Shown here piece after piece: positions 38,309-45,744 of a stretch of 64,000 nucleotides of DNA (positions are counted from its first letter, which is position 1; the number at the start of each line of letters is the position of its first letter). Source of the DNA: Clostridia bacterium. Lineage in GTDB: Bacteria > Bacillota > Clostridia > UBA1381 > UMGS1253. The notes under the pieces were generated by a model. It searched no databases. It had not been told where the DNA came from and saw only the letters and a list, made by a program, of their open reading frames with translations. The translations under genes were made by a program, and so were the position numbers. The stretch is taken from the NCBI GenBank assembly GCA_045652745.1, contig JAZRUW010000015.1:3120-67119 (forward strand), read 5' to 3'.

Positions 38309-39682
38309 ATGGAGCTGAAAACTGAAATCAAGAAAAATGATATATACGAAACAGAAATCGTGGACCAGGCTTCCAGCGGTGACGGCGTTTGTCGCATCGG
38401 CGGATTTGCCGTGTTTGTGCCGCGTACTGTCAAGGGGGATATTGCACGCATCCGTATCGTAAAAATGAACAAGACCTACGGGTTCGGCAGACTCGAAGCG
38501 CTTTTGCAGCCGTCGCCGGCAAGAGTGCAGCCGCCTTGCGCCGTGTTTGACAAATGCGGCGGCTGTGATTTCATGCATATTGATTACAAAACGCAGCTTA
38601 CGCTCAAGCAAAAGCAGGTGCAGGATGCCATTTCCCGCTTGGGCGGATTTAAAGATGTAACCGTGGAACCGACGCGCGGCATGGCGGAGCCGTATGCGTA
38701 CAGAAACAAGACGCAGATGCCGGTCGGTATGGATAAAGATGGTAAAACCATTTGCGGTTTTTACCGCCGACACAGTCATGATTTGGTGGAAACGTCGCAT
38801 TGCTCGGTATGCGCACCTGCGGCGATGCGGGCGGCAGAATGCGTTAAAGAATATATGCGTATTGCCAAGGTAAAGCCATACGATGAAAAGTCACATTCGG
38901 GCGTAATTCGCAATGTGTTTGTACGTACGGCAAAGGACGGCGCGGTGATGGTGGTTGTTGTAGCCAATGCTTTGTTTTTGCCCAAGCCTGAATTGCTCGT
39001 TTCGCTTTTGCGCGAGGGCGTAGAGGGATTGGTAAGTGTGCAGCACAATATCCATACGGAGAAAACCAATCTGGTGCTCGGAAAAAATAACGATGTACTT
39101 TGGGGCGAGCCGACACTTTGCGATAGTATCGGCGATTTGGAATTTGAAATTTCGCCACACAGTTTCTTTCAGGTCAATCCGATACAGACACAGGTACTTT
39201 ATGAAACGGCGGTAACGATGGCGAATATCCAAAAGACAGATACCGTCTTTGACCTTTATTGCGGTATCGGTACGATTTCTTTGTTTGCGGCAAAGCGCGC
39301 AGGTAAAGTTATCGGCGTGGAAATCGTAGAAGATGCGGTGCGCGATGCAAAGAAAAATGCCGTGCGCAACGGGATTGCAAACGCCGCTTTTTACTGCGGT
39401 GATGTGCAAAAAAGCATACAGGATTTGTATGGGCAGGGCGAGCGAGCTGACGTGGTGATTTTAGATCCGCCGCGCAAAGGCTCGGACGAAACAACGCTTG
39501 AAATTATTTTAAATATGCAGCCGGAGCGCATCGTATATGTTTCCTGCAATCCGGCCACACTTGCACGCGATTTGAAATATTTGTGCGCAAGCGGGGAGTA
39601 TAAGATTGACACAGTCGTTCCCGTAGACATGTTTCCGCATACGGTGCATGTGGAGTGCTGTGTGCTACTATGTCGCACATAG
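38309..39682 (+). CDS. 23S rRNA (uracil-C5)-methyltransferase, RlmD/RumA family
   Basis: TRAM N-terminus, Fe-S Cys cluster (CAVFDKCGGCDFMH ... C), SAM motifs (DLYCGIGTISL, ILDPPRKG) and a catalytic C-terminus (YVSCNPATLARD). Confidence 0.85.
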   Translation: MELKTEIKKNDIYETEIVDQASSGDGVCRIGGFAVFVPRTVKGDIARIRIVKMNKTYGFGRLEALLQPSPARVQPPCAVFDKCGGCDFMHIDYKTQLTLKQKQVQDAISRLGGFKDVTVEPTRGMAEPYAYRNKTQMPVGMDKDGKTICGFYRRHSHDLVETSHCSVCAPAAMRAAECVKEYMRIAKVKPYDEKSHSGVIRNVFVRTAKDGAVMVVVVANALFLPKPELLVSLLREGVEGLVSVQHNIHTEKTNLVLGKNNDVLWGEPTLCDSIGDLEFEISPHSFFQVNPIQTQVLYETAVTMANIQKTDTVFDLYCGIGTISLFAAKRAGKVIGVEIVEDAVRDAKKNAVRNGIANAAFYCGDVQKSIQDLYGQGERADVVILDPPRKGSDETTLEIILNMQPERIVYVSCNPATLARDLKYLCASGEYKIDTVVPVDMFPHTVHVECCVLLCRT

Positions 39683-39688
39683 CACTCA

Positions 39689-39864
39689 TCGATATAAATC
39701 TCTTGCGAGATTTTCGATATATCCTAACGGATTCGATATGTGCTAACGCACTCGATATGTTTCCTTTGGAAACGAGATTTATATCATATCGAAACCGAGT
39801 AAAGCGAGGTTATATCGAATTTTGCGAAGCAAAATATATCGAACACGCAAAGCGTGTATATCGA
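39689..39864 (+). repeat. array of 7 short variable hairpins separated by 8 copies of a 7-mer (4x TCGATAT, then 4x its complement ATATCGA)
   Basis: TCGATAT occurs at 39689, 39714, 39733 and 39752. ATATCGA occurs at 39786, 39812, 39836 and 39858. The intervening palindromes are AAATCTC-TTGC-GAGATTT, ATCC-TAAC-GGAT, GTGC-TAAC-GCAC, GTTTCC-TTT-GGAAAC, AACC..GGTT, ATTTTGC-GAA-GCAAAAT and ACACGC-AAA-GCGTGT. Confidence 0.8.
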
Positions 39865-39882
39865 TAAAGGAGATTATACTAT

Positions 39883-40233
39883 ATGGAAACCAACAAAAAC
39901 ACATTACGAGAAGAAACCATCAATTTTGCAATAGAAATATCTGATATTTGTGATAACATCAAAGGTTGTTCAGTATATATTAACCAGCTATTGAGATGTT
40001 CTTCATCTATCGGGGCTAATCTTCACGAGGCAAAATATGCACAAAGCAAAGCCGACTTTATAAATAAATTAGAAGTTGCATTAAAAGAAAGTTTTGAAAC
40101 GGAATATTGGTTAGAATTGTTATTTCGTAAGAATAGGATTGACGAAACTACATATAAAGGTTTAATTAACAAATGCGGAACGATAAGAAGAAAATTAATT
40201 GCATCTGTCACTACTGCGAAGAACAAACAATAA
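39883..40233 (+). CDS. four-helix-bundle protein (23S rRNA intervening-sequence protein family)
   Basis: RBS AAAGGAG. Motifs QLLRCSSSIGANLHEA and FETEYWLELL are typical of this family. The gene is strongly AT-rich compared with its neighbours. Confidence 0.7.
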   Translation: METNKNTLREETINFAIEISDICDNIKGCSVYINQLLRCSSSIGANLHEAKYAQSKADFINKLEVALKESFETEYWLELLFRKNRIDETTYKGLINKCGTIRRKLIASVTTAKNKQ

Positions 40234-40252: not shown

Positions 40253-40615
40253 ATGTATATGCCTATATGGATATTATATTGGTTTCCATTCTTTTTGCCT
40301 ATAAACTATGGTATCAAATTTGCTGTTATTAATATTGTTTTATGGATTTGCAAAAAAGTGATGAATATTAATGATATATATAGTATATCTACTGCAATAA
40401 AAAGTTTCTGTTTAACTATCGTGGCAGAACTGGTAGGGATAGCAATGTTCTATATCATTGAAATGAATACTGAAACTGATTTTTACTATGGAAATTATTT
40501 GGCATTTTGTCTATTAGTATTTTTTAGTGTCTCCATATTAAATTTCATACTAAACTATATATTTGTTTTTAGGAAAATAAATGTTTCAACAAAACAAAGT
40601 TTCATCCTTGCATAA
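40253..40615 (+). CDS. small hydrophobic membrane protein, unknown function
   Basis: ATG at 40253 follows GGGAGATGA. It has 3-4 predicted TM segments and is AT-rich. Confidence 0.45.
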   Translation: MYMPIWILYWFPFFLPINYGIKFAVINIVLWICKKVMNINDIYSISTAIKSFCLTIVAELVGIAMFYIIEMNTETDFYYGNYLAFCLLVFFSVSILNFILNYIFVFRKINVSTKQSFILA

Positions 40616-41310: not shown

Positions 41311-41350
41311 AAAACCAAAAGCGATACCCGACGGGTATCGCTTTTGGTTT
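41311..41350. terminator. bidirectional terminator shared by the flavodoxin gene and the NTPase operon
   Basis: AACCAAAAGCGATACCCG/CGGGTATCGCTTTTGGTT. Confidence 0.85.
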
Positions 41351-41353
41351 ATC

Positions 41354-42175
41354 CTAATTGTTGAAAAAATCCTTTATGATTGCCAAAGTTAACTGCGCCG
41401 GCTCGAACGAGTTGACGTTGGGGACGGTGTCCATATATATGTATCGGTTGCGAATGGCATTTTTCCACTCGTCGTTTCCCATAGCCTCGCCGGCCCTCTG
41501 TTTTGCTGGTTTTTGGGAGGGATGGGTGTTTTGGTCGTCGAGAAGATTGTAGTATTGGATAAAGCCTTCGCGCAGGTAATTTCGGCACATATCATCCGAG
41601 CTAAACCAAGCGCCGTATAATTTTTTCCAGTTGTCAAATGCTTTTTGAGTATTTGAAATACGGTTTGACAGACAATTTTCAACAAGCTCCAGCCACGTTT
41701 TCGTGTGGTCATAAAGTCGTTCGAGCGCCGTTTGCCAATCTTCTTCTTCCATACGGAATTGCCAGCCATTTTTCACATCCGGATCTACGCCAAAATAGGT
41801 CCTGAAGCCTTTGTCAATCCAATCCTGCCGTTCGCGATTTACAGACAAATCATCATTGACCATGTGGCAATAATACAAACGCATATTGCGCAGAAAACAG
41901 ATAAACCTATCAAAGCGCGTGCAATCTCGTTCGGTAAAGCCGATATCTTGCAAAAAGTCGTTTTTGTCATCGTTGTTCCACATGCCGGGCATACACTCGC
42001 GAAACAGGATGTGTATGTTAATGCATTCGCGCCAGAACATACTTTCCGTTGTGTTTGTTTCGCTATAGAGCGGATTCCAGTCCAAAAAGATGTAACATCT
42101 TTTTTTAGCATCCAGATCTGCCGCAAGGTCGTTTATGCGCGCTACGGTATCCCTAAACAAATCGGAGCTGTTCAT
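41354..42175 (-). CDS. hypothetical protein with R-x4-H dyad (candidate HEPN-like effector), second gene of NTPase operon
   Basis: ATG at 42175 overlaps the upstream stop in ATGA. 273 aa, helix-rich and Trp/Asp-rich. FLRNMRLYYCHM lies at 41864-41881. I recognise no other motif. Confidence 0.55.
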   Translation of the reverse strand: MNSSDLFRDTVARINDLAADLDAKKRCYIFLDWNPLYSETNTTESMFWRECINIHILFRECMPGMWNNDDKNDFLQDIGFTERDCTRFDRFICFLRNMRLYYCHMVNDDLSVNRERQDWIDKGFRTYFGVDPDVKNGWQFRMEEEDWQTALERLYDHTKTWLELVENCLSNRISNTQKAFDNWKKLYGAWFSSDDMCRNYLREGFIQYYNLLDDQNTHPSQKPAKQRAGEAMGNDEWKNAIRNRYIYMDTVPNVNSFEPAQLTLAIIKDFFNN

Positions 42176-45100
42176 TCGTGTGACACCTTCTCTCTTGTAG
42201 CGGAGACGCCCACGAAGCTCACGCCGATGCAAAGGTCTTCAATAATTTTATCGGTTTTCTTGTACTGTTCCAAATCCACTCTTTCGCTTCCAAAGATATT
42301 GTTGCGGTTAAAGAACACGTTGGATGCAATGTGGCGGCGATCCGGACCATAGATATCCATTCGGCCTTTGGTGGCGTTGGAATCTTCAAATTTGTGGATT
42401 TTTCCGGAGAATAATTTCGGCGTACCGTCCGCGTGGCAAAGCAAATATCTGGGAATATTGCGCATGGTCTGGTTGACATCTTCGCTTTCACCGCGCAGAG
42501 CGGAAAACTCACTGTTGCAAGCGGCTATATCGCCGAGCTGTGCATAGGCCAACGCGAGCACATAACGTAAATAAAATGTATTTTCGGTTGCCGGCAAATT
42601 CTTTGCCTGCTCACAGATGGAGAGCAGCTTACACCACTGTTCATCGGTAAAATAGGTTCTTTGACGTTCGCCGGAAACGAGAAGCGGTGTTTTGTTGTGC
42701 ATCAGCCAGAACAAACGCATCTGCAGATTCAGACAACGTGCATCCGGCGTGTAGTTTTTCAGATATTCTTCGCCGAAGAAACGGTCGTAAATCGCGCGCA
42801 CTGCCTCGGTATCGTCGACGGATTTCCATTCGATACAAGGCTCCGTGCGGATAAATCCGGCTCTGCGGCATGCCTGAAAAGCGCAGCAGTACAGCATCGC
42901 CGCCGTCGGTTTTTCGACGCGCATTTTCTCGGCAAGGGCATCGACGTCTAAAACGGAATCCATCATATTAAACAATTCGTTACATGCCTGCACAAACTGG
43001 GAATGGTTTGCAATGTCCTTGGTTTGTTGCAGAGCCGTAAAGATTTTTTCAAGGGTATCGGAAATGTACTCTTGTTTTTCGGTTTCCTCCAGCGTGGTTT
43101 TGAGCAGATGCGCCCGTGTCCATACCAAAGTGGAAATTGCGTGCTTCTGGGAAGCACCGGAAACTCTCAAAACCTTATCGCACAGTCTGCCGGCGGCTAC
43201 AAGCTGGTCGGCATTCGGATGCTCTTTGTTGCGCATCGCCATGGCGAGTCTGCCGTTGGCCATTTCGACGCGCAGTTGGTCGAAATAACTGCGAAGAGAC
43301 ATGTCCATGCCCTCTTCTGCCTGTAGGAATTTCTCGCCCTTTGTCGACTTATCTGCGAGATCGGGGATGTAGCTTTGTGCATGGTATGCCCTAAAGAAAT
43401 CATCGTCGATGCCTTCCTCCCAGTCACGCGCTTCGCGCATAATGCTTACAAAGGTTTCGTAATCGCAACATTCTGCCAGGGCTTCCGGCTTGCTTGTCAA
43501 CTCACGCGTGAGCGTCAATTCCTGTACGAGAATGCGCGGGTCACGGGTTTGTTCGCCCGCTGCGGACAGGGCATTAATCAGGCATGGTGCATATTTGTAA
43601 AAGTCGTTTGCCGCCCAACGCAGGCTCTCGTTTTCGCGGTTGTTCGGGCCTACGGCAGAAATAATGCGCGTTACCTTTTCGATGGCTTCATCTGCTGCCT
43701 CGGAGGCAAACTGTCCCGTTTCAATCATATATAAAAGTCTGCAAAGGTATACGGTGTAGAGATCTTTGTTGTGTCCGTGCGGACTCATCTGATGTGCACG
43801 CAGAAGCATTTCTGCCTCCAGACGGGAACGGACCTTATAGTGCCATACGCCGGCTTGCTCTGTGGCGATAAATATCGGCGCATTGAGCGCTTTGATTAAA
43901 CTGTCCTGATTTGCAGAGAACAGGCCGAAAATCATATCGAGCGACATCGACATATTAAAGTAGGTCAGAATTGCCGAGTAGATGGCAAATTCTTTGAGTT
44001 TGCTTTTCTGGTTGTCTTCTGTGTTCAGACTGGCAAGAAAACTGTTGAATTTTTCCTGATTGGCACGCATAACAAACTGGCCGAACATGCCCTCCTGTAC
44101 GGTGCAGGCTTCCTGTAAAACATCTTTGACGGTTTCGCGAAATTCTGCGTAAATTCCGCGGGAAATGTCGCTTCGGATATCGTAGAAAATATGATAAAGG
44201 ATCGCCAGGAAATTGTCTTCCTTGCTGTAGCGTAAAATGGCATCAATATCAGTGATGTCCAGATTGGTCTTGTTTTTCAAAATGGAGCGGAACTGCGTTC
44301 TTTCGTCCGGATCGAGCCGGATGTCAGCACAGATATCATAAAACTCCTGTTTGAGCGAGGCGTTTTTGTTGAGTTGGTAATTTGTGCCGACCAAGGTAAC
44401 GTTTAAGCCGCTGTTACGCAAGTGGGTATAGAGTCTGTGGTAATTTGTGCGCTCAAATTCGAAACCCGAACAATCCCAAATCAGCAGTACGGATTTGGCG
44501 TCGTATTTGTCTTGCAACATTTTGATTAAATTAAACAAAGCATTGTAGCGGACGGAAGCATCTGTGTTATCGCGGGAAAAACTGAAGGTCACATTCGGAT
44601 TTGTAATATAGATGACCGGAAATTTCTTTTCGTGAAAAATTTCATAGGCAAGCTGACCCACAGCTACACTTTTGCCGGCGCCGGACTGTCCGTGCAGTAA
44701 AATCGGGCGGTGCTCAAAATTGGCCGGATTTTCCAAAGATGCGCGTACGACATCGGTCAATTCCTTTTGGAAGCTGCGCTCTAAGGCGTATTTTTCTGCA
44801 TAACCGAACCACTTGGGGTAATTGGTGTTGTTTTTTAAGAACGAGGCAAAATACGACGGATGTAAATATTTCGGCTTTGGCGGCGGATTCATTTCATCGT
44901 AATCCAACAATCTTGCAAAAGACGAGATGTCTCTGAGGTCTTTTTTCTCGATGGAAGCGCTCTTTTTGCCGACGAAGAATAAGCACTGGTCGCTGTCAAC
45001 GGGTTCGTCAAAAAAGTCGTCCTCCCAAGCATCGGACGTATGTGTACTTGTGTTCAAAGGTGCCCATTGCTCTGCTAAAGATTCGTTTAAGAATTTAAAG

Positions 45101-45666
45101 CAGGTGCATCGGCCGTTTTCATCGGCAATCATTTCACGTAAATCCGCAAAATCCGCGTCGCTGCAACGGTCGATAAGGATACAGTCTTCGCGCTCGAAAA
45201 CGGCGTGCATGGCATCTAACAGATTTTCGGCTTTAAACCAACTGTCCTCGGTGAAGCCTACAAAATATGCGCATCCGAAACGAGCGATTGCCTGTGCACA
45301 GAATTTGTCAATCGTGTCTTTTGCAATGCGGCGGTTTGTGTTTAACGACTTGCCGGTTTCCTCATTTTCCGCCAGATACCAAAGCGCAATTACGTTCAGG
45401 TTGCGCGGGTCGAACTGTTGCGGAATTTTCTGGGCATCCTCCAGGTTGTTTTTTAATACATTTATACATCTGGTTTCGGTGTCCATCGCAAATTGCAGTT
45501 TGTCTACGTCTTCTCTTTTTTGCAGAAAGGTAAACACGGTATTCCATTTTAAATTCAGTACGGCCTTGTCTTTTTCAAAATCAAAATTATCGCCTATGAA
45601 CAGTATGTTGCGCGCCATCGGCTCGTCAAAATACGCATAGGCTTTTGCAAAATCAAAATCACTCAT
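42172..45666 (-). CDS. large NACHT/STAND-like P-loop NTPase with N-terminal Rossmann-like domain, long helical-repeat region and C-terminal beta-rich domain
   Basis: ATG at 45666 follows AAAGGCGGG; the track start at 45744 falls inside the promoter. Walker A GQSGAGKS lies at 44668-44691. Walker B SVLLIWDCSG is followed by NVTLVGTN. About 600 aa of helical repeats follow. Confidence 0.7.
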   Translation of the reverse strand: MSDFDFAKAYAYFDEPMARNILFIGDNFDFEKDKAVLNLKWNTVFTFLQKREDVDKLQFAMDTETRCINVLKNNLEDAQKIPQQFDPRNLNVIALWYLAENEETGKSLNTNRRIAKDTIDKFCAQAIARFGCAYFVGFTEDSWFKAENLLDAMHAVFEREDCILIDRCSDADFADLREMIADENGRCTCFKFLNESLAEQWAPLNTSTHTSDAWEDDFFDEPVDSDQCLFFVGKKSASIEKKDLRDISSFARLLDYDEMNPPPKPKYLHPSYFASFLKNNTNYPKWFGYAEKYALERSFQKELTDVVRASLENPANFEHRPILLHGQSGAGKSVAVGQLAYEIFHEKKFPVIYITNPNVTFSFSRDNTDASVRYNALFNLIKMLQDKYDAKSVLLIWDCSGFEFERTNYHRLYTHLRNSGLNVTLVGTNYQLNKNASLKQEFYDICADIRLDPDERTQFRSILKNKTNLDITDIDAILRYSKEDNFLAILYHIFYDIRSDISRGIYAEFRETVKDVLQEACTVQEGMFGQFVMRANQEKFNSFLASLNTEDNQKSKLKEFAIYSAILTYFNMSMSLDMIFGLFSANQDSLIKALNAPIFIATEQAGVWHYKVRSRLEAEMLLRAHQMSPHGHNKDLYTVYLCRLLYMIETGQFASEAADEAIEKVTRIISAVGPNNRENESLRWAANDFYKYAPCLINALSAAGEQTRDPRILVQELTLTRELTSKPEALAECCDYETFVSIMREARDWEEGIDDDFFRAYHAQSYIPDLADKSTKGEKFLQAEEGMDMSLRSYFDQLRVEMANGRLAMAMRNKEHPNADQLVAAGRLCDKVLRVSGASQKHAISTLVWTRAHLLKTTLEETEKQEYISDTLEKIFTALQQTKDIANHSQFVQACNELFNMMDSVLDVDALAEKMRVEKPTAAMLYCCAFQACRRAGFIRTEPCIEWKSVDDTEAVRAIYDRFFGEEYLKNYTPDARCLNLQMRLFWLMHNKTPLLVSGERQRTYFTDEQWCKLLSICEQAKNLPATENTFYLRYVLALAYAQLGDIAACNSEFSALRGESEDVNQTMRNIPRYLLCHADGTPKLFSGKIHKFEDSNATKGRMDIYGPDRRHIASNVFFNRNNIFGSERVDLEQYKKTDKIIEDLCIGVSFVGVSATREKVSHE

Positions 45667-45715
45667 TTTTATCCCGCCTTTCGGTTTTGTAAAAGGATAC
45701 AATACTACTGATTTT

Positions 45716-45744
45716 ATTATAGCCTTATTGATTTTCCGTGTCAA
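45716..45744 (-). promoter_or_regulatory. consensus sigma-A promoter of the NTPase operon
   Basis: On the minus strand: TTGACA (45744-45739), 17-nt spacer, TATAAT (45721-45716). Confidence 0.7.

Follow-up and report, generated by a model that had tools for sequence, protein, structure and literature searches.

The closest described relative of the element treated here is Gut-1 (RF01706), a motif from human gut metagenomes, found in no sequenced organism and classed as a non-cis-regulatory RNA on covariation grounds (Weinberg et al. 2010, PMC2864571). Its model consensus comprises four (G/A)UGAAAU heptamers and three hairpins; the publication makes no mention of a heptamer grammar, a second module, a preceding hairpin (H0), a centre, host taxa or a link to PF05635, and assigns no function. 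Here we analysed a 64,000-nucleotide (nt) stretch of a Clostridia bacterium contig (JAZRUW010000015.1, assembly GCA_045652745.1), hereafter the window, in which eight copies of one heptamer, four as TCGATAT and four as the reverse complement ATATCGA, alternate with hairpins at positions 39689–39864, just upstream of a PF05635 23S_rRNA_IVP/TIGR02436 gene (hereafter IVP). This array belongs to a Gut-1-like heptamer–hairpin superfamily, of which it is a TCGATAT-type member with two modules, and it is physically and evolutionarily coupled to the PF05635 gene.

PF05635/TIGR02436 is a widespread family that includes the open reading frames (ORFs) of 23S rRNA intervening sequences (IVSs) and is related to Avd of diversity-generating retroelements. 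We know of no heptamer–hairpin grammar described in IVSs, and of no match between the heptamer and Spo0A, DnaA, chi, methylation-site or other known short motifs. The heptad operators and centromeres of the omega repressor (inc18 plasmids) and iteron-type parC/ParR sites are likewise built of 7-bp units, direct and inverted, upstream of their own gene, with omega-type sites taking one unit of a ribbon–helix–helix protein per heptad on contiguous double-stranded DNA; the array differs in its palindromic spacers and in the fold of its protein, and the likeness serves as a lead only. IVSs with a PF05635 ORF (for example, the Coxiella IVS, PMC4990558) involve the same protein family and are, similarly, small selfish insertions beside structured RNA, but they sit in rRNA genes (helix 25 or 45), whereas the window element does not, and both of its modules lie upstream of the ORF. 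The nearest published architectural analogue is found in Geobacter metallireducens, in which multicopy intergenic sites of four short tandem octa- or heptanucleotide repeats form opposite-strand pairs at variable distance and the proposed binding protein was left unidentified (Aklujkar 2009, PMC2700814); these sites have no hairpin spacers, belong to a different phylum and come with no reported PF05635 link. In the literature, we found nothing describing the TCGATAT array and no paper linking heptamer repeats to PF05635/TIGR02436.

In the window, TCGATAT starts at 39689, 39714, 39733 and 39752, and ATATCGA at 39786, 39812, 39836 and 39858, exactly where an earlier sequence-only reading of this DNA had placed them. 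On both strands together the window holds 18 heptamers against 7.4 ± 2.9 expected, a count reached by none of 100 shuffles, and 8 of the 18 are packed into 176 nt. The intervals between them are end-anchored palindromes of 12–19 nt, and the array region folds more strongly than its shuffles (z = −4.5 on the + strand, −5.4 on the − strand). The T module (39689–39773, + strand) consists of four TCGATAT copies, each followed by a hairpin: H1 (39696–39713, 18 nt), H2 (39721–39732, 12 nt), H3 (39740–39751, 12 nt) and H4 (39759–39773, 15 nt). After H4 comes a 12-nt centre, GAGATTTATATC (39774–39785, +), made of a copy of the H1 3′ arm plus ATATC, and then the A module (39786–39864, +), in which four ATATCGA copies enclose H5 (39793–39811, 19 nt, of a GA-motif type and, with a 4-bp stem, the weakest of the set), H6 (39819–39835, 17 nt) and H7 (39843–39857, 15 nt). 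GAGATTT is present at both 39707 and 39774. Two features had been overlooked in the earlier reading: GATAT+AAATCTC (39691–39702) is the exact reverse complement of the centre, and a 13-bp hairpin, H0 (39653–39687, +; GAGTGCTGTGTGC/GCACATAGCACTC, with one G·T pair), covers the final nine codons and the stop of the upstream gene and ends 1 nt short of heptamer 1. That gene is rlmD (TIGR00479, 453 bits), whose TAG stop lies at 39680–39682, with the array beginning 6 nt downstream. At the other end, an 18-nt linker (39865–39882, +) carrying the IVP ribosome-binding site AAAGGAG (39866–39872) leads to the ATG of the IVP gene (39883–40233, +), which encodes a 116-aa four-helix-bundle protein with 2RLD (five chains) as its closest solved structure.

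The exclusions made from the sequence alone largely held up. The array is not CRISPR-like, the repeats being 7 nt long in both orientations, the spacers palindromic and the neighbours free of cas genes. Nor does it look like a series of terminators: H4 plus the centre alone scores as a weak terminator-like site, with a AGATTTATAT tail, and the remaining hairpins have no T-run. Coding potential was rejected on heptamer spacings that are not multiples of three; the 70-aa GTG-start ORF that spans the whole array (39655–39867, +), called as a gene in a public assembly (L001 2773–2985), is thus a by-product. The array also marks the left edge of AT-rich accessory DNA, as had been noted, with GC content falling from about 0.50 to 0.33. 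No sigma-70-like promoter was predicted inside the window array; a promoter-like TTGCCT-17-TATCAT site was scored in the centre of relatives only.

The earlier statement that no described element with this architecture was known did not survive comparison with Rfam, in which Gut-1 corresponds to one module of a sister heptamer type. Against the ATGAAAT array upstream of an IVP homologue at L281, the Gut-1 model scores 53.9 bits for the T module and 43.3 bits for the A module on the other strand, and the flanks of the Gut-1 seed contain an inverted AUAUCAC module that the model leaves out. The window itself scores 21.3 bits (39807–39866, − strand), short of the threshold of 50, and this was its sole Rfam match; its UCGAUAU heptamer departs from the (G/A)UGA(A/U)AU consensus of Gut-1 and has GAUAU in common with the GUGAUAU seed members. 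The window family resembles Gut-1 in its gut metagenome origin and in the architecture of a single module, with the same four conserved heptamers and three covarying hairpins; Gut-1 as published has one module in one orientation, whereas the window array has two. The Gut-1 motif, that is, one module of the sister type without an assigned function, was already known.

The array is not unique. When species-representative genomes were scanned for a pattern of three TCGATAT copies at set spacing, at least 120 loci were returned; once simple tandem repeats from unrelated phyla had been removed, at least 81 hairpin arrays were kept among the matches listed, overwhelmingly in metagenome-assembled genomes (MAGs) of gut and rumen Clostridia and nearly all from hosts labelled Oscillospiraceae, Acutalibacteraceae, Christensenellaceae or 'Eubacteriales'. 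The common layout is H0, four heptamers with H1–H4, a centre whose sequence complements heptamer 1 together with the 5′ arm of H1, and four inverted heptamers with H5–H7; in most members, a hairpin ending in ..GCA lies immediately 5′ of heptamer 1. Among 30 orientable full elements, the hairpins are positionally homologous: H1 has the consensus AAATCYC-loop-GRGATTT, H3 is frequently GTGC-loop-GCAC and H4 frequently GTTGCC-loop-GGCAAC, H5 reads stem-GAGC-GNA-GCGA-stem, the centre is the H1 3′ arm plus ATATC, and the flanks are ..GCA before heptamer 1 and CAAA after heptamer 8. Other forms include half elements with only four heptamers, elements in the order ATATCGA ×4 then TCGATAT ×4, and centres of up to about 130 nt. 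Modules or arrays of different types also abut, as ATGAAAT ×4 with TCGATAT ×4, TCGATAT with AATTCAT, and TCGATAT with GCTAAAT (L020 5989–6166, L041 1753–1953, L113 2717–3112), which suggests that arrays insert beside arrays or that modules recombine. BLASTN of the window array against plasmid and phage collections gave no match, and only 3 of 119 pattern matches in viral contigs were true arrays, so the array is not a phage feature. The arrays define a dispersed repeat of uncultivated gut Clostridia, of a new kind.

New here are the position of the array directly upstream of a PF05635/TIGR02436 gene and the match between IVP clade and heptamer type. The window IVP has more than 3,250 homologues, the best 120 of which are 82–97% identical to it. 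Nearly every homologue with an identity of 51% or more has an array upstream wherever upstream sequence is available; the loci fetched for three of the best homologues all consist of an rlmD-type gene, an array and IVP, with only the T module retained in L243. In nearly all IVP-linked arrays it is an A-type module that adjoins the IVP start (exceptions are L243, with its A module deleted, and L287, with only GTGAAAT copies), and the junction heptamer-(C/T)AAA(A)GGAG is common to the window, L249, L245, L265 and L266. The homologue starts 15–25 nt past the last heptamer in L059, L067, L073 and L078 and lies one gene away from the array in L069 and L119, while the solo array of L049 precedes a decayed pseudogene of IVP and just the first four IVP codons are left in L109. 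IVP genes or their remnants thereby adjoin arrays in independent contexts, after rlmD, carB and a PGI gene as well as in these last four loci. The gene calls of many homologues run into the array, and database IVP entries are often 157–188 aa long; these extended entries and the 70-aa array ORF look like annotation artefacts.

Array and gene are also linked in their evolution. IVP proteins are 66–92% identical where the neighbouring RlmD proteins are only 36–47% identical, and the 82% DNA similarity to distant genera spans the rlmD tail, the array and IVP and ends at the IVP stop codon. In L073, which is not in an rlmD context, similarity starts exactly at heptamer 1.

The heptamer changes with the IVP clade. 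In a metagenome search for IVP relatives, proteins of 64–80% identity went with TCGATAT/ATATCGA, those of 60–70% with GCGATAT/ATATCGC and those of 51–63% with ATGAAAT/ATTTCAT, with single loci carrying GTGAAAT or GWGATGT/ACATCAC; at 40–47% identity the repeats were plain tandem heptamers without hairpins. Clusters of the IVP proteins obtained by the unweighted pair group method with arithmetic mean coincided exactly with heptamer type (16 loci with TCGATAT, 8 with GCGATAT and 4 with ATGAAAT), and the match included single loci with GTGAAAT, GWGATGT and GCTAAAT, the last of these being L069, in which GCTAAAT/ATTTAGC lies directly upstream of an IVP of 54% identity. At protein positions 8, 9, 16, 20, 29 and 83, the IVP clades differ in residues that are fixed. 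Clostridial loci contained further types (GTGAAGT/ACTTCAC, ATGAATT/AATTCAT and GTGATAT), in some cases several side by side at a single locus, with each IVP matched to its own type, indicating that several type-specific systems coexist in one genome. Within any one array, all heptamer copies carry the same variant and switch together. Gene conversion does not readily account for eight dispersed 7-mers changing in concert amid unrelated hairpins; the pattern suggests instead a trans factor specific to each type, for which the adjacent, co-varying IVP is the obvious candidate. The earlier suggestion that the adjacent four-helix-bundle protein may bind the array is thus strongly reinforced, as a candidate, by comparative sequence evidence.

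Hairpins and heptamers are conserved in different ways. We compared 24 cleanly parsed homologous elements with a control in which 3′ arms were swapped among elements: the outer four pairs of each hairpin were 90–99% Watson–Crick, against 58–90% with swapped arms, and several pair types occurred per stem position. Orthologous rlmD-linked arrays showed compensatory replacements (H6 attttgc/gcaaaat to attttac/gtaaaat; H2 atcc/ggat to gttc/gaac), and in two near-identical strains H4 and H5 differed through compensated changes. The palindromic intervals are thus real, as first read, and the hairpins are under selection for fold rather than sequence. All 24 elements kept the 12–14-nt complementarity of the centre to heptamer 1 plus the H1 5′ arm, with 9–14 of 14 positions matching (at least 11 in 23 of them), and variants at the H1 5′ arm and centre covaried (AAATCTC, AAATCCC, GAATTC, AAATTCC, TGCTCC, GAGAT/ATCTC), so that AAATCTC has two selected partners, bearing out a proposal of the sequence-only reading. 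The arrays gave no support to a switch by DNA inversion acting between the 5′ arm of H1 and the centre; the predicted '+ - - - - - - -' arrangement was never seen.

That reading had further suggested that the four TCGATAT could pair with the four ATATCGA to stack four-way junctions into a ladder; if functional, such a ladder might serve, for example, as a stem processed by RNase III in the manner of an IVS. Minimum-free-energy folds do include such rungs, in every type seen the A-type heptamer is the reverse complement of the T-type one, and in L264 and several plasmid loci inverted arrays flank IVP, so that pairing would enclose the ORF. However, among 28 heptamer positions that deviate, none was compensated in the rung partner, 3 gave wobble pairs and 25 were broken; a ladder may form, but it draws no specific support from this. 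A variant of the first T-module heptamer was compensated in the centre and not in the fourth A-module heptamer, half elements, hybrid two-type neighbours, permuted elements and L243 without an A module all exist, and inverted protein sites predict reverse complementarity equally well. We regard the ladder as quite improbable as the functional fold. The heptamers, unlike the hairpins, are kept for their sequence.

The arrays also carry a strand signature. GNA and GNNA loops lie on the strand that has the heptamers as ATATCGA, where loop counts are 33 for GAA, 11 for GCAA and 10 each for GTCA and GCA, alongside AAA, GTAA and GTTA; the first mismatches of the stems on that strand are G·T in 24 cases against A·C in 6. 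This signature tracks the orientation of the heptamer and not that of the element, which indicates that the two modules are equivalent units, inverted. As a single strand, + is favoured in the right module and − in the left, and in the IVP-proximal module the strand with the signature has the sense of the mRNA. In DNA, triloops of the C-GNA-G kind, d(GCGAAGC) among them, have unusual stability.

From these observations we infer that the heptamers would be sequence-specific sites for IVP, as an Avd-like oligomer, with the hairpins serving as folded spacers between which the heptamers are presented when the nucleic acid is single-stranded. The likeliest bound form would be an mRNA leader running into the IVP ribosome-binding site, with single-stranded DNA as the alternative, and array plus IVP would make up a small selfish cassette lodged at the rlmD 3′ hairpin. 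Related solo arrays may have reached the 3′ ends of other genes by spreading, or be decayed forms there. We judge this reading to be evenly poised between right and wrong. Several points weigh against it. Neither PADLOC nor Pfam gives IVP a nucleic-acid-binding annotation, in about 65 of the 75 Clostridial loci of the scan the 8-kb locus contains no IVP gene, and the association of IVP with heptamer type could reflect linkage alone. In the distal (T) module, it is the antisense strand that shows the favourable loops and wobbles, which does not fit a single sense-strand RNA serving both modules. In Rfam and in Weinberg et al. (2010), Gut-1 is a free-standing small RNA (sRNA) annotated the opposite way round, and outside Clostridia the 4 to 41 repeat copies described below look more like slippage-prone repeats than a fixed operator.

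A rival account is a structured RNA independent of IVP, either free-standing, as Gut-1 is annotated, or in a 3′ untranslated region, acting as a 3′-end stabilizer, a bidirectional terminator or insulator, or a regulatory sRNA. Consistent with such a role, Gut-1 was classed as RNA from its covariation, arrays lie between stop codons and terminators and between convergent genes, H4 plus the centre is terminator-like and the fold is strong. This account nevertheless leaves unexplained why eight strictly conserved heptamers switch with the IVP clade, and the strand signature follows the module instead of the element or gene. A bias for the upstream gene to lie on the same strand (24 of 30) was rejected as an artefact because convergent pairs always score that way; co-directional contexts alone gave only 8:4. 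Most hairpins have no U-tract, and a terminator in the window array would leave IVP, itself lacking a promoter-like site, cut off. An IVP-independent RNA is, in our estimation, improbable.

Flanking ORFs of at least 100 aa on both sides of an array were convergent in 20 cases, co-directional in 15 and divergent in 2. Several MAGs supply two array loci each. Solo arrays sit at gene 3′ ends, retain 'ATATCGA-CAAA' and sometimes keep IVP remnants, and their presence varies among close relatives: in L037 the array stands 31 nt downstream of tktB, with the stop codon on one side and a conserved terminator on the other, while relatives with 95–96% and 87–91% identical TktB have only ordinary terminators there and no array. 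The L037 insertion showed no definable target-site duplication.

Rearranged loci were found as well. At one carB–pyrK site, L265 and L266 have the order T module, centre, A module, IVP, and L264 the order A module, IVP, T module, indicating that modules have been rearranged around IVP as units. L078 (3086–7729) contains rlmD, an array, an HD_5-domain gene, a second near-identical array, IVP and an Mrr_cat restriction endonuclease; the duplicated array is an exact copy from about 10 nt before heptamer 1 through the last heptamer, on either side of the inserted HD_5 gene. In L001, a near-identical strain, the gene for a 557-aa large serine recombinase (Resolvase/Recombinase/Zn_ribbon_recom; 1127–2800) enters the last ~30 nt of rlmD, indicating a mobile element integrated in the rlmD 3′ hairpin, H0; judged by sequence, a 29-nt stretch (L001 2765–2793; window 39647–39675) appears to behave as an attachment site. 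An exact second copy of this 29-nt rlmD tail occurs at L001 3818–3846 and L002 953–981 and is missing from the window (compare 40599–40612), so that array, IVP and a small membrane ORF are bracketed by direct repeats in L001 and L002. These two loci have an Acyl_transf_3 gene (1,084 nt) plus the tail copy between the small membrane ORF and a flavodoxin gene; the window has neither. In L067 (1066–1220 and some 60 nt upstream, read on the − strand), a GTGAAGT/ACTTCAC array is preceded by a hairpin that shares about 80% identity with H0, the rlmD-tail hairpin of that locus, and H0-like sequence would thus travel with arrays. Cassette-like behaviour was seen in L078, L264 and L001 only.

Much of this would also suit a non-autonomous mobile DNA resembling REPINs (doublets of repetitive extragenic palindromic, or REP, sequences) or miniature inverted-repeat transposable elements, whose inverted modules would be ends or a recombination site, with some recombinase or transposase recognizing the heptamers and with IVP and the other small genes as cargo or neighbours. 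The dispersal of arrays, their 3′-end placement, the absence of the tktB array from close relatives, the duplication in L078, the permuted carB–pyrK order, the H0 repeats at cassette borders with a serine recombinase element joining at the same 29 nt, and the clustering of arrays of different types all speak for it. Yet no transposase or recombinase recurs near arrays: clustering of 851 flanking ORFs gave only IVP and rlmD. Integron attC cores (RYYYAAC/GTTRRRY) are absent from the array, and no tyrosine recombinase recurs beside arrays. The lack of a definable target-site duplication in L037 also counts against a purely mobile-DNA account, which we consider unlikely; that account leaves unexplained why heptamer type tracks IVP clade, unless IVP is the mobility factor, in which case it merges with the reading that IVP binds the heptamers. 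REP sequences, bacterial interspersed mosaic elements and the REPIN–RAYT system (PMC3116915, PMC3337134) do share with the arrays short extragenic palindromes in inverted doublets, dispersed at gene 3′ ends, with one small protein gene beside a copy and the possibility of several repeat–protein pairs per genome. REPIN–RAYT, however, has a Y1/HUH transposase, whereas none is recurrent among the array-flanking ORFs, where the recurrent neighbour is PF05635; the partner is a four-helix-bundle protein without known catalytic activity, the constant part is a 7-nt linker and not the hairpin, and the window array lies on one side of its gene only, unlike the repeats flanking a RAYT gene.

Repeats beside the gene are not confined to Clostridia. 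We inspected six TIGR02436 genes from PLSDB plasmids of Dolichospermum, Nostoc, Planktothrix, Treponema, Bernardetia and Chlorohelix, covering Cyanobacteria, Spirochaetes, Bacteroidota and Chloroflexota. All six had period-7 tandem repeats directly upstream, in 4 to 41 copies, and all six had period-7 repeats directly downstream, in at least four cases a clear reverse complement of the upstream repeat (pairs include ATTAGTG/TCACTAA, AATTCAA/TTTTGAA and GTAATTC/TTACGAA). These loci indicate a general architecture of heptamer array, IVP and inverted heptamer array, which resembles the stem-enclosed PF05635 ORFs of 23S rRNA IVSs; in L264, too, inverted flanking repeats can enclose the ORF as in those IVSs. 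In L299 (Treponema saccharophilum pTS1, 38–380), about 41 tandem AGGAAAG-like heptamers (280 nt) lie upstream of the TIGR02436 gene, with inverted CTCTCCG repeats on either side, a copy number far from the Clostridial four per module. We tentatively propose, and hold it somewhat doubtful, that PF05635/TIGR02436 proteins may in general be sequence-specific binders of tandem heptamer arrays, each clade co-evolved with its own heptamer, and that protein and array may form an unrecognized class of small selfish cassette, REPIN/RAYT-like without a classical transposase, whose arrays in gut Clostridia would have gained hairpin spacers (Gut-1) and spread solo.

The genes around IVP are often restriction- or defence-like, including an HNH endonuclease, Mrr, a helicase-related protein together with an N-6 DNA methylase, and a cytosine methyltransferase (L243 2854–3288; L298, L301, L302, L303), and PF05635 genes seem to sit inside or beside restriction–modification operons. 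In the window, a 1,190-aa protein (42172–45744, −) encoded just past the flavodoxin gene has a weak match to nSTAND/AAA NTPases (PF25199, 24 bits, below the cut-off) and may be a defence-type STAND NTPase in a variable region. The flavodoxin gene and a converging 292-aa ORF are separated by a strong 18-bp hairpin (41312–41350) that has A- and T-runs on its flanks and looks like an ordinary bidirectional terminator.

For annotation, the array misleads gene callers, either by extending IVP into it or by a 70-aa ORF called across it, and it marks variable, defence-gene-rich spots in these genomes. Gut-1 has been an orphan RNA motif since 2010 and PF05635/TIGR02436 is an orphan protein family; the link between them supplies a concrete hypothesis for both. 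Because protein clades and heptamer types match exactly, cognate binding is predicted, for which the specificity variants TCGATAT, GCGATAT, ATGAAAT and GCTAAAT are natural, built-in controls.

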